Below are positions 1-1,978 of a stretch of 64,000 bases of DNA, piece after piece; the first letter of the stretch is position 1, and every line of letters begins with the position of its first letter. Location: NCBI GenBank assembly GCA_963717465.1, contig OY970340.1:480001-544000 (forward strand). The letters are read 5' to 3'. Made by a program: the position numbers and the translations under genes. The notes beneath the pieces are model-generated. The model had not been told where the DNA came from, did no database searches, and saw only the letters and a program-made list of their open reading frames with translations. Origin of the DNA: Candidatus Bathyarchaeota archaeon. Lineage in GTDB: Archaea; Thermoproteota; Bathyarchaeia; Bathyarchaeales; Bathycorpusculaceae.

Positions 1-1034
1 GGTTTTGCGTGTAAGTATTCGCCGCCTTCTATGTCGATGTTGCCTGTTAGCGCTGGTAGCATATATTTGGATCGCACATTACTCATGGAGTTCCTGCCTG
101 ATGATTCAATTGCGTAGCCGTATGGGAACGTGCATGGACGGTTTTTCACTATGAATCTGGCTGCTTCTCTAATCTTTTCAGCTGGAATCCAAGTTATTTC
201 CGCAGCCTTCTCAGGCGTATACTGCTTAACACGTTCCTTTAGCTTATCAAATCCAAAGGTCCATTTCTCCACAAACTCATGATCGTACAAATCCTCCTCG
301 ATGAGGACATTCATCATAGCCAGCATAAGAGCGGTATCAGTTCCAGGCCTAATCGCCAACCATAATTCAGAATTTCTAACAGTTTCAGTATAGCGTGGAT
401 CGACGCAGAGCATTTTCGCGCCACCCTCGACTGCTGCAACAAAGCCAGGCCATGAATATGTCCAAGATTCACTGGGATTCGTTCCAATCGCAAAGATACC
501 TTTGGTCTTACCAGGAATCATCATTGCATATGTTAATCCCACGCCATAGCCTAATCCTAAGGCTTGGTACGTGGGTCCAGCTCAGTGTGTCGCTGCAACA
601 GGCCCAAAGTTAGGGCTGCCCAATAACACATGGAAAGGCGCACAGCCAAGACCTAGGTTAGCAGATCGACCAGTGCCGCTAATGCCGCATACAGATTCGG
701 CGCCATACTTTGCTACAATTTCCTTTACTTTAGCAGCAATTTCCGAAATAGCTTGATCCCACGATATTATTTGCCACTTCCCTTCACCTCGTTTGCCAAT
801 ACGCTTCAACGGATACATGGGTCTGTCTCTATGGTAGATGTACTCTACAGAGTACTTCCACTTCTGACAATAAGGCCCAGGATTAAACGGACTTTCCCAA
901 TCAGGCTCAACTTTAGTGATTTTACCGTTCTCAACAGTCTCAAGCAATTGACATGATCCAGTACTACAGAAACCGCAAATACATCTATGCAATCCATCGT
1001 ATTTCTTCGGGTCTTCAATTTTAGTTTCACTCAT
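1..1034 (-). CDS. Mo/W-bis-PGD (DMSO reductase superfamily) oxidoreductase, acetylene-hydratase-like clade; 5' part only (runs off window), with in-frame TGA at codon 151 (582-584), candidate selenocysteine
   Basis: ATG at 1034 preceded by AGGAG. N-terminal Fe-S motif CGFCSTGSC...CQK and YPLKRIGKRGEGKWQIISWDQA. Manual translation past the TGA continues in the same frame without stops to base 1, giving IGTNPSES, CVDPRYTET, WLAIRPGTDTAL and LTGNIDIEGG, all typical of the family. Confidence 0.92.
538..575 (-). promoter_or_regulatory. Candidate bacterial-type SECIS hairpin immediately 3' of the in-frame UGA
   Basis: Minus-strand sequence CCCACG-TA-CCA-AGCC-T-TA-GGAT-TA-GGCT-A-TGG-CGTGGG. Pairings are CCCACG/CGTGGG, CCA/TGG, AGCC/GGCT and TA/TA with a bulged U. 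The apical loop GGAU starts at +25 after the UGA. Confidence 0.6.
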
Positions 1035-1115
1035 TTTTCTATCTCCTATTACTTTATGTCTTTGAAACAAGTTAATATTAAGGTCTGTTTAATATTTAAG
1101 GTTAAAATATGAGCC

Positions 1116-1372: not shown

Positions 1373-1978
1373 TTAAGCGTCAACAGGCGTTATTTTCTTC
1401 GTAAATGTATTATTTTCTATGTGATTCACTGGTTTAGCCGATTGAAATATTGATCCCAAGTTTCGATATGAAAATGGTTTTGGCCACATTTTATCCGTGT
1501 GAAACATGAAGCTATGTACTTCAAGGGATGGTAATTTATGCAAAAGCGATAATTCTTTATCAACCATCTTTGAGAACTTTATAAAATCATCATAATCCTT
1601 GTGAGCAGTTACAGCGAACCATTGTGTTCCTGTCATGCCGCGATCTACGAGGAGGCACAGCAATTCGGGATGGCTGTGAGCCACTTCATCAGCTTCGCTA
1701 AATTGCATTGGTGTTACTATATCAGTAGTTGAAGCTAACGAAAGCACAACAACCTCTAGCCCAATTTTATAGAAATCAGGTACTGGAACGTATTCTTTTA
1801 TGTAGCCCTCTTGTTCAAGCTTCTTTTTTCTTCGAGACAAAGATGTGTGGCTTATTCCCAAACGTTTGGCAATTTCTCTATCGCTATTACCGCTTAATGC
1901 CATCAAAGTAAACAAAGTTTTTAGATTTTCTTGTTCCTTTCTCTCCAGTGCATTTCGTTTACTCAATGGTCTATTCAT
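1373..1978 (-). CDS. Lrp/AsnC-like winged-HTH transcriptional regulator
   Basis: SDREIAKRLGISHTSLSRRKKKLEQEGYIKEY..PDFYKIG HTH, followed by a RAM-like domain. Confidence 0.8.
   Translation of the reverse strand: MNRPLSKRNALERKEQENLKTLFTLMALSGNSDREIAKRLGISHTSLSRRKKKLEQEGYIKEYVPVPDFYKIGLEVVVLSLASTTDIVTPMQFSEADEVAHSHPELLCLLVDRGMTGTQWFAVTAHKDYDDFIKFSKMVDKELSLLHKLPSLEVHSFMFHTDKMWPKPFSYRNLGSIFQSAKPVNHIENNTFTKKITPVDA

Follow-up and report, generated by a model that had tools for sequence, protein, structure and literature searches.

A putative selenocysteine-liganded enzyme of the acetylene hydratase branch in a Bathyarchaeial genome and a candidate recoding hairpin within its reading frame

Introduction

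Among enzymes that carry molybdenum (Mo) or tungsten (W) on bis(pyranopterin guanine dinucleotide) (bisPGD), selenocysteine (Sec) use is listed only for FdhF, FdhA, FdnG, and FwdB in the accessible part of PMC10100899, and acetylene hydratase is given there as a Cys enzyme. The subject of the present work is a gene at the beginning of a 64,000-nucleotide (nt) stretch of the genome of a Candidatus Bathyarchaeota archaeon (NCBI GenBank assembly GCA_963717465.1, contig OY970340.1, positions 480,001 to 544,000; G000:C1:480001-544000 in the genome coordinates used here), hereafter referred to as the window. This gene is predicted to encode an enzyme of the acetylene hydratase branch whose metal ligand would be Sec, specified by an in-frame UGA codon, and a conserved hairpin lies within its open reading frame (ORF) 6 nt downstream of that codon. 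The picture that best explains the data as a whole, and that is held with high confidence, is one of a Sec-liganded enzyme made through the archaeal route of Sec synthesis, with the hairpin as the probable signal for Sec insertion and with the gene duplicated into what may be a series of catabolic modules.

In Bacteria, the Sec insertion sequence (SECIS), the prototype of which is that of Escherichia coli fdhF and which is read by SelB, is a stem-loop within the ORF just downstream of the UGA codon, as is the hairpin described here. Archaeal SECIS elements, in contrast, are placed in 3' untranslated regions (3'UTRs) in the accessible text of reviews of 2024 and 2026 (PMC11227280; PMC13188914). 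Sec use in the lineage under study is already known: Sec-encoding systems with a fusion of PSTK and aSelB have been described for Bathyarchaeota (PMC8762117; Mukai et al., Front Genet 2022) and Bathyarchaeotal Sec use is repeated in a review (PMC9499178), in the portions of both papers that were available. The statement in a first-pass annotation of the window that Sec use was not established for this group is thus outdated. The main text of PMC8762117 never mentions SECIS, and neither 'acetylene' nor 'Bathyarchae' occurs in the 2026 review, which covers prokaryotic selenoproteomes (PMC13188914). No acetylene-hydratase-like selenoprotein and no Bathyarchaeial SECIS were found in the literature searched, the scope of which excluded most subscription journals and supplements; within that scope, both a Sec-liganded acetylene-hydratase-like clade and a conserved in-ORF hairpin 6 nt after a UGA appear to be new.

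An In-Frame UGA Codon at the Metal-Ligand Column

On the genome contig (a single contig of 3,053,889 bases with a marker-gene completeness of 88%), the gene comprises 767 codons with a single internal TGA and ends in TAG. As the first-pass annotation had reported, the ORF is halted by the TGA at codon 151 and the frame stays open beyond it, which was borne out both by direct reading, with 193 further open codons up to window base 3, and by the genome contig. The predicted read-through peptide across residue 151 is ...FGPVAATH-U-AGPTYQALGLGYGVGLTYAMMIPGK. Among solved structures, the read-through protein is closest to 2e7z, the acetylene hydratase of Pelobacter (Syntrophotalea) acetylenicus (residues 18-755, E 7.8e-110), with thiosulfate reductase ranked second (E 8.7e-56) and formate dehydrogenases also well behind. 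In the alignment to 2e7z, the UGA column coincides with the Cys of SPNWTSAMYMC, which we take to be the tungsten ligand Cys141, and the earlier placement of the UGA at the Mo/W ligand position therefore holds.

The first-pass annotation had taken this UGA to encode Sec and had proposed looking for Cys or Sec at the same column in homologs, for the same TGA in related genomes, for decay of the 3' half of the gene, and for the Sec machinery; the results on all four support its interpretation. A tblastn search of the genome with the read-through protein returned 14 places that span the column, 11 of which, the window copy and 10 further paralogs, carry TGA (44-80% identity to the window copy); the remaining places are a 33%-identical paralog with TGT and two remote, poorly aligned Mo enzymes. 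Because 11 paralogous genes carry a single in-frame TGA at one aligned column, the internal TGA is far beyond chance. The eight intact TGA copies contain exactly one TGA each and terminate with TAA (six copies) or TAG (two copies). Across the genome, TGA terminates 253 of 1032 stop-to-stop frames of >=300 codons and is thus an ordinary terminator of long frames, indicating that it has not been reassigned.

Among 120 proteins returned from the database, 110 span the column, and these have Cys in 109 cases and Asp in one. The other 10 are the closest matches (65-97% identity) and are C-terminal pieces of 442-607 amino acids (aa) that start past the column, as expected when a gene caller stops at the TGA. 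N-terminal counterparts are present in the database as 15 clusters of 139-172 aa, and all nine N-terminal pieces that were fetched from 8 other public contigs (143-172 aa; identity 65-79%) stop one residue before the column. In 15 other genomes among 401 sampled from the same class, homologs at E <= 1e-100 occupy 19 places, none with internal stops; these 19 places and the Cys paralog of the genome itself encode TGT or TGC at the column (20/20). None of 39 genomes of the same genus contained a homolog at E <= 1e-100, and a search of metagenome contigs for close Sec-type relatives returned 3 distant loci only. It should be noted that tblastn column mapping on 80 distant loci (28-44% identity) was unreliable, with 32 loci uncovered and many off by 1-3 residues, and was not used.

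Purifying selection acts on the 3' part of the gene. When the window copy is compared with six paralogs, the ratio of nonsynonymous to synonymous substitution rates (dN/dS) ranges from 0.095 to 0.153 past the UGA and from 0.089 to 0.139 ahead of it, with dS around or above 1. Moreover, in a FastTree phylogeny of 63 hand-chosen rows, the eight intact Sec copies cluster as a single clade with Shimodaira-Hasegawa (SH)-like support of 98, separate from the 51 other family members and from every sampled Cys form of bacteria and archaea; the rows included 27 of the 80 loci and 8 of the 120 database proteins and left out the three broken paralogs and two loci without a long ORF (L057 and L069).

Were the TGA to terminate translation, one would be dealing either with a pseudogene or with two separate products, an Fe-S piece of 150 residues and a C-terminal piece with its own start. 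This is highly improbable, since all 11 copies are interrupted precisely at the metal-ligand column, dN/dS is equally low on either side of it, a split there would lose the ligand residue, the first ATG past the UGA lies 20 codons downstream, and TGA is never the final stop of the eight intact copies; what speaks for a true stop is that gene callers split all copies (into C-terminal products of 596-607 aa and N-terminal products of 139-172 aa) and that 3 of the 11 copies contain extra frame breaks. The broken copies (G000:C1:130847-133145, 616633-618931, and 2797286-2799584) may be decaying copies or may reflect indel errors in the assembly; in all three, UGA and hairpin are preserved.

These three broken paralogs, as signs of indel errors or pseudogenes in the genome, could also be taken to mean that a Cys codon was misread in sequencing or assembly, as could two other genes with an in-frame TGA at a non-Cys column and no hairpin (see below). 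Such an error would have had to strike the same codon in 11 diverged copies, and on 8 other contigs the called proteins stop at the column as well. Positions 556-592 are spanned by contigs of 80-99% likeness from four further metagenomes (freshwater sediment, sediment, and peat), and among the 40 differences listed (with 428 more besides) there is a synonymous A>G at 579, in the spacer, and none at 582-584. Eight metagenome contigs (six and two from two metagenomes) diverge exactly behind 584 and then encode PNFGSVAAQT, as other paralogs do. The metagenome contigs fit a conserved TGA in relatives and are not proof for the present assembly. An error at this codon is accordingly regarded as the least probable explanation of all, with next to no weight.

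Several points count against reading the codon as Sec. The 11 TGA paralogs are kin and not independent observations, and three of them carry frame breaks in addition to the TGA. The metagenome comparison involves contigs of relatives and not source reads, and it cannot prove base calls. Finally, no RNA run was listed among the public sequencing runs matched to window positions 1-1100, and the DNA runs (7 runs of 6 studies) had shares of <=0.11. Considering the Cys column in homologs, the recurrent TGA, the selection on the 3' part, and the machinery described below, it can be said with very high confidence that the UGA at codon 151 encodes Sec.

Affiliation of the Enzyme

Pfam domains PF04879 (Molybdop_Fe4S4; 31.0 bits), PF00384 (Molybdopterin; 96.1 bits), and PF01568 (Molydop_binding; 39.8 bits) were all detected over their cut-offs, an architecture that the enzyme shares with 2e7z along with the ligand column. 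No NCBIfam model reached its cut-off; Fdh-alpha scored 243 bits against a cut-off of 666. The four Cys that would bind the N-terminal [4Fe-4S] cluster (C20, C23, C28, and C56) are unchanged across 8 paralogs, and three of them fall <=1 residue from Cys of 2e7z in the alignment. As in 2e7z, the protein looks cytoplasmic, with no twin-arginine leader visible in MSETKIEDPKKYDGLHRC as judged by eye without a predictor. The enzyme is thus predicted, from these sequence features, to be a cytoplasmic, single-subunit Mo/W-bisPGD protein of the acetylene hydratase branch with an N-terminal [4Fe-4S] cluster. It belongs to the same Mo/W-bisPGD superfamily as the Sec-containing FdhF, FdhA, FdnG, and FwdB and, like them, would have a UGA-encoded Sec as metal ligand past the G-x-P/N-N motif. 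FdhH (1aa6) is a match over residues 19-333 (E 2.2e-40); the Sec-type formate dehydrogenases represent a separate branch, as indicated by the Fdh-alpha score below cut-off.

Affiliation with this branch does not make the enzyme an acetylene hydratase, which it probably is not. Ser24 (codon AGT, 963-965) aligns with the Asp of 2e7z that follows the second Fe-S Cys, presumably Asp13, and the first-pass annotation was right in remarking on this replacement of Asp by Ser; the enzyme should for this reason not be named acetylene hydratase. In addition, the Fe-S motif is C-x2-C-x4-C here and C-x2-C-x3-C in 2e7z, and the ligand is UGA/Sec here and Cys there. Given Ser24, the different Fe-S spacing, the Sec ligand, and the separate Sec clade, the substrate is not inferable from that of acetylene hydratase.

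Selenocysteine Machinery

A complete set of genes for Sec synthesis and delivery is located on the same 3.05-Mb contig as the enzyme gene. Two tRNA-Sec(UCA) genes score 71.8 and 61.8 bits against the Rfam RF01852 model (gathering score 47), and their acceptor stems differ by compensating changes. SepSecS (488.9 bits; cut-off 224.85) adjoins the first tRNA-Sec gene. SelD is also encoded, and its own codon 14 is a UGA (...VPVHG-U-SCK). Two PSTK-aSelB fusion genes, with ORFs of 744 and 740 codons from stop to stop, encode KTI12/PSTK, GTP_EFTU, D2, and aSelB_III domains followed by a domain-IV-like (Tsr1/BMS1-like) C-terminus, and their products are mutually 54% identical. The presence of two parallel Sec-delivery sets in one genome is unusual. 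At least 120 proteins in the database are related to the fusion and match it in length and domain content; among those that carry a name, the nearest (69-70% identity) are labelled Bathyarchaeota or Bathyarchaeia. Of the genomes sampled, SepSecS was detected in 12/401 for the class and in 3/39 for the genus, indicating that the Sec trait is patchy.

Like the Bathyarchaeotal Sec system already described, the present one combines PSTK and aSelB in one ORF, here in two copies. In the accessible text of PMC8762117, the fusion is tied to coexisting SepRS-SepCysS without SepCysE. SepRS and SepCysS were both below cut-offs in this 88%-complete genome (best scores of 50.2 bits against 380.65 and 44.1 bits against 365.25, respectively), and the published rationale for the fusion, namely the shielding of O-phosphoseryl-tRNA-Sec (Sep-tRNA-Sec) from SepCysS, consequently does not apply to this organism. 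This bears on whether the UGA could be decoded as an amino acid other than Sec, for example as Cys carried on tRNA-Sec or on a near-cognate tRNA, yielding an ordinary Cys-liganded enzyme. Cross-talk between Cys and Sec via SepCysS is discussed in the same part of PMC8762117; nonetheless, SepRS and SepCysS do not reach cut-offs, the Sec pathway is complete and includes a Sec-containing SelD, and TGT or TGC would suffice for Cys, as in 20/20 homologs. Decoding as an amino acid other than Sec is therefore considered very unlikely.

From the known functions of these families, the Sec-decoding pathway would begin with serylation of tRNA-Sec (anticodon UCA), as in the archaeal route. The resulting Ser-tRNA-Sec would then be phosphorylated by the PSTK domain of the fusion and converted by SepSecS to Sec-tRNA-Sec with selenophosphate supplied by the Sec-containing SelD. 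The aSelB part of the fusion would deliver Sec-tRNA-Sec to the UGA, which would be marked by the conserved in-ORF hairpin 6 nt downstream, a bacterial placement of the signal combined with archaeal machinery.

A Hairpin Downstream of the UGA Codon

The 45 nt that begin at +6 after the UGA fold with free energies of -15.4 to -21.8 kcal/mol in 11/11 copies, compared to background folds at +6 of -6.0 +/- 3.2 kcal/mol (3000 Cys codons in long ORFs) and -4.8 +/- 3.1 kcal/mol (253 TGA stops). After the Cys codon of the 20 homologs, the hairpin is absent (mean fold -8.6 kcal/mol, minimum -14.2 kcal/mol). Across the 11 copies, 89% of cells are paired, versus 23-47% with the partner slid; 5 of 14 hairpin pairs have changed on both sides, and the observed covariation score was reached by 0/500 shuffles. 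The copy with 44% identity retains the stem via a register shift. In the seven close paralogs, the codon is invariant at 19 of 142 invariant four-fold-degenerate residues, a count made up of 5/5 in the outer stem and 14/137 elsewhere.

The coupling of UGA and hairpin extends to other genes. In a scan of 6665 in-frame UGAs, hdrA, mvhD, and the 11 enzyme copies ranked top among long frames, with +6 spacing; at <= -13 kcal/mol this screen retained 146/6665 UGAs, most of which are probably noise. The +6 hairpins after the hdrA and mvhD UGAs fold at -26.0 and -22.0 kcal/mol, respectively, and that of hdrA has z = -5.7 relative to shuffles of its own sequence. Orthologs of hdrA-mvhD in three Sec-positive relatives have kept both the UGA and the hairpin (-21.0 to -27.6 kcal/mol), and hdrA-mvhD copies with TGT or TGC and near-identical peptide fold at just -6.7 to -10.8 kcal/mol. 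Based on these comparisons, the in-ORF hairpin is probably the signal that marks the UGA for Sec insertion.

There are, at the same time, observations that argue against such a role. First, the structure used in the covariation test was derived from the very paralogs tested. Second, relative to shuffles of their own locally G+C-rich sequences, the window copy and mvhD have z = -2.5 (6/200) and z = -1.9 (8/200), respectively. Third, a 13-codon window on the hairpin ranks 6th lowest of 650 in synonymous variation, with codons ~250-267 lower. Fourth, the selD UGA is without a +6 hairpin (fold -5.4 kcal/mol), so that the +6 rule is not universal. Fifth, neither PSTK-aSelB fusion contained SelB-wing domains at E <= 0.01 (Pfam), so that aSelB lacks the winged-helix domains through which bacterial SelB recognises the SECIS. 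As for the selD UGA itself (G000:C1:951702-951811, plus strand), a hairpin of ~87 nt starts 12 nt downstream, and the 110 nt fold at -40.8 kcal/mol (z -3.07, 1/200 shuffles).

Sec at UGA151 could alternatively depend on another recoding signal, such as an unrecognised UTR element or a trans-acting factor, in which case the hairpin might, for example, pause the ribosome, hinder the release factor, or stabilise the mRNA. The lack of a +6 hairpin at selD, the aSelB domains without a known RNA-binding extension, the modest shuffle z values of the window copy and mvhD, and the 3'UTR location of archaeal SECIS in the reviews cited above are all compatible with this alternative. The flanks yielded no 3' or 5' candidate for such a signal. 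The GAA_A-type SECIS pattern was found 0 times in eight 3' flanks (353 nt each) and eight 5' flanks (300 nt each), with one occurrence genome-wide; in 10 selenoprotein loci totalling 49,485 bases, no Rfam family was recovered at E <= 0.1, and the Rfam SECIS models had no match at E <= 10 on window positions 450-650. No structured UTR element of the archaeal SECIS type was thus found in the flanks, a search that was not aimed at Asgard eSECIS-like elements. Runs of five or more T start 5-30 nt past the stop codon in 7/8 intact copies, which likewise speaks against a signal in the 3' flank, and the coupling of UGA and hairpin occurs in three unrelated contexts (the enzyme family, hdrA, and mvhD), with both lost in Cys copies. 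Another signal is consequently considered rather unlikely, and a role of the hairpin in marking the UGA remains preferred.

Such a hairpin would differ from a bacterial SECIS in the machinery around it: the elongation factor is of archaeal type and lacks the C-terminal winged-helix domains of bacterial SelB, and the Sec-tRNA route runs via PSTK/SepSecS and not via SelA. A broader proposal, toward which we lean only slightly, is that Bathyarchaeia with the PSTK-aSelB fusion decode Sec-UGA by a local in-ORF +6 hairpin. This third arrangement, if true, would join a signal placed as in Bacteria to Sec-tRNA synthesis of the archaeal/eukaryotic kind and to an aSelB without bacterial RNA-binding domains. 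A local signal used with archaeal machinery would, if true, change the 3'UTR-SECIS picture for archaea, which is ranked here as the most important implication, and would bear on the relation of bacterial to archaeal/eukaryotic Sec systems. A local signal would move together with its codon, and conversion of Cys to Sec and gene duplication would thus be easy; easy duplication, if true, could explain an 11-copy family of Sec-liganded W/Mo enzymes that is not known elsewhere. A Sec reporter system exists in Methanococcus, according to the accessible part of PMC11881835.

Sec-liganded acetylene-hydratase-like enzymes would also add a selenoprotein family. Since automatic gene calling yields two pieces for each of the 11 copies, metabolic reconstructions miss or misread the whole enzyme family, and the hosts affected are widespread sediment archaea.

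Table 1. Positions of the enzyme gene and its elements in the window and of Sec machinery genes elsewhere on the contig (the latter with the prefix G000:C1).
Feature	Position	Strand	Remarks
Gene for acetylene-hydratase-like Mo/W-bisPGD enzyme, codons 1-344	1..1034	-	Remainder past window start, to G000:C1:478734
Candidate Sec recoding hairpin, 38 nt, in ORF, codons 154-166	538-575	-	Minimum free energy -19.9 kcal/mol
Outer stem of hairpin, CCCACG paired with CGUGGG	570-575 and 538-543	-	Inner stem inside
Apical loop of hairpin, UAGGAUU, 7 nt	553-559	-	About 22-29 nt past UGA
Spacer between UGA and hairpin, GCUGGA, 6 nt	576-581	-	Equal length in all 11 paralogs, hdrA, and mvhD
UGA, codon 151, proposed Sec and metal ligand	582-584	-	Context GSPNFGPVAATH-*-AGPTYQA
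Fourth [4Fe-4S] Cys, Cys56	867-869	-	Codon read directly
N-terminal [4Fe-4S] motif, Cys20-x2-Cys23-x4-Cys28	951-977	-	Codons read directly
ATG start codon	1032-1034	-	Protein begins MSETKIEDPKK
Shine-Dalgarno-like GGAGAT	1041-1046	-	Upstream of ATG
Gene for winged-helix (HTH_24/MarR-like) regulator	1376-1978	-	Directly upstream of enzyme gene
tRNA-Sec(UCA) gene 1	G000:C1:845695-845779	+	ARAGORN; Rfam RF01852
tRNA-Sec(UCA) gene 2	G000:C1:2829638-2829723	-	ARAGORN; Rfam RF01852
PSTK-aSelB fusion gene 1	G000:C1:952706-954940	+	selD ~60 nt upstream
PSTK-aSelB fusion gene 2	G000:C1:2827363-2829585	-	Adjoins tRNA-Sec gene 2

Gene Neighborhood

A homologous MSE... start is common to all of the enzyme paralogs. 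Paralogs of the winged-helix regulator adjoin 6 of the 11 enzyme copies (copies A, which is the window copy, C, D, E, G, and J). Genes for enoate-reductase-like flavoenzymes (Oxidored_FMN and Pyr_redox_2) adjoin copies C, F, G, and K; genes for MttB-like, MtmB-like, and B12-binding proteins (corrinoid methyltransferases) adjoin copies D, I, E, and G; and SCP2-like genes adjoin copy H. The identity of these neighbors suggests that the 11 copies represent duplicated, separately regulated, substrate-specific catabolic modules.

The regulators, which are ~170-200 aa in length and were duplicated together with the enzyme genes, have in common the sequence ...ENLKxLFALMALGGKSDREIAKxLGISNxTLSRRxKKLEQEGYIKEY... 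and occur near G000:C1:126766, 127488, 615576, 1209147, 1209725, 2379292, and 2497089.

Other In-Frame UGA Codons

A coding-potential screen for more selenoprotein genes performed poorly: 30/40 loci were Pfam-scanned, nearly all were same-frame neighbors, and selD and hdrA-mvhD were missed. Beyond the window and immediately downstream of the enzyme gene, a gene for a DegT/DnrJ/EryC1 aminotransferase (G000:C1:477147-478286, minus strand) has an in-frame TGA at codon 279. Its Pfam domain runs across the TGA (residues 21-375, E 2.2e-123) and the post-TGA fold is -8.0 kcal/mol, with no hairpin; this TGA probably reflects a nonsense mutation or a miscalled base and not Sec. A gene of the MttB superfamily (G000:C1:1121393-1122979, plus strand) carries an in-frame TGA at codon 339, opposite Arg/Leu of two paralogs, and here too there is no hairpin (-9.3 kcal/mol); lying at a non-Cys column and lacking the hairpin, it provides a natural negative control.

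Two in-frame UGAs on the minus strand (G000:C1:2823439 and 2823619), 180 nt apart and in frames that are open on both sides, are followed by stable structures of -17.2 and -16.2 kcal/mol. Hairpins of -19.1 to -20.1 kcal/mol were also detected after UGAs with just 10-30 open codons upstream (G000:C1:157563, minus strand; 3025131 and 1805082, plus strand), and these short-frame hairpins may be terminators, noise, or parts of small, unrecognised selenoprotein genes.

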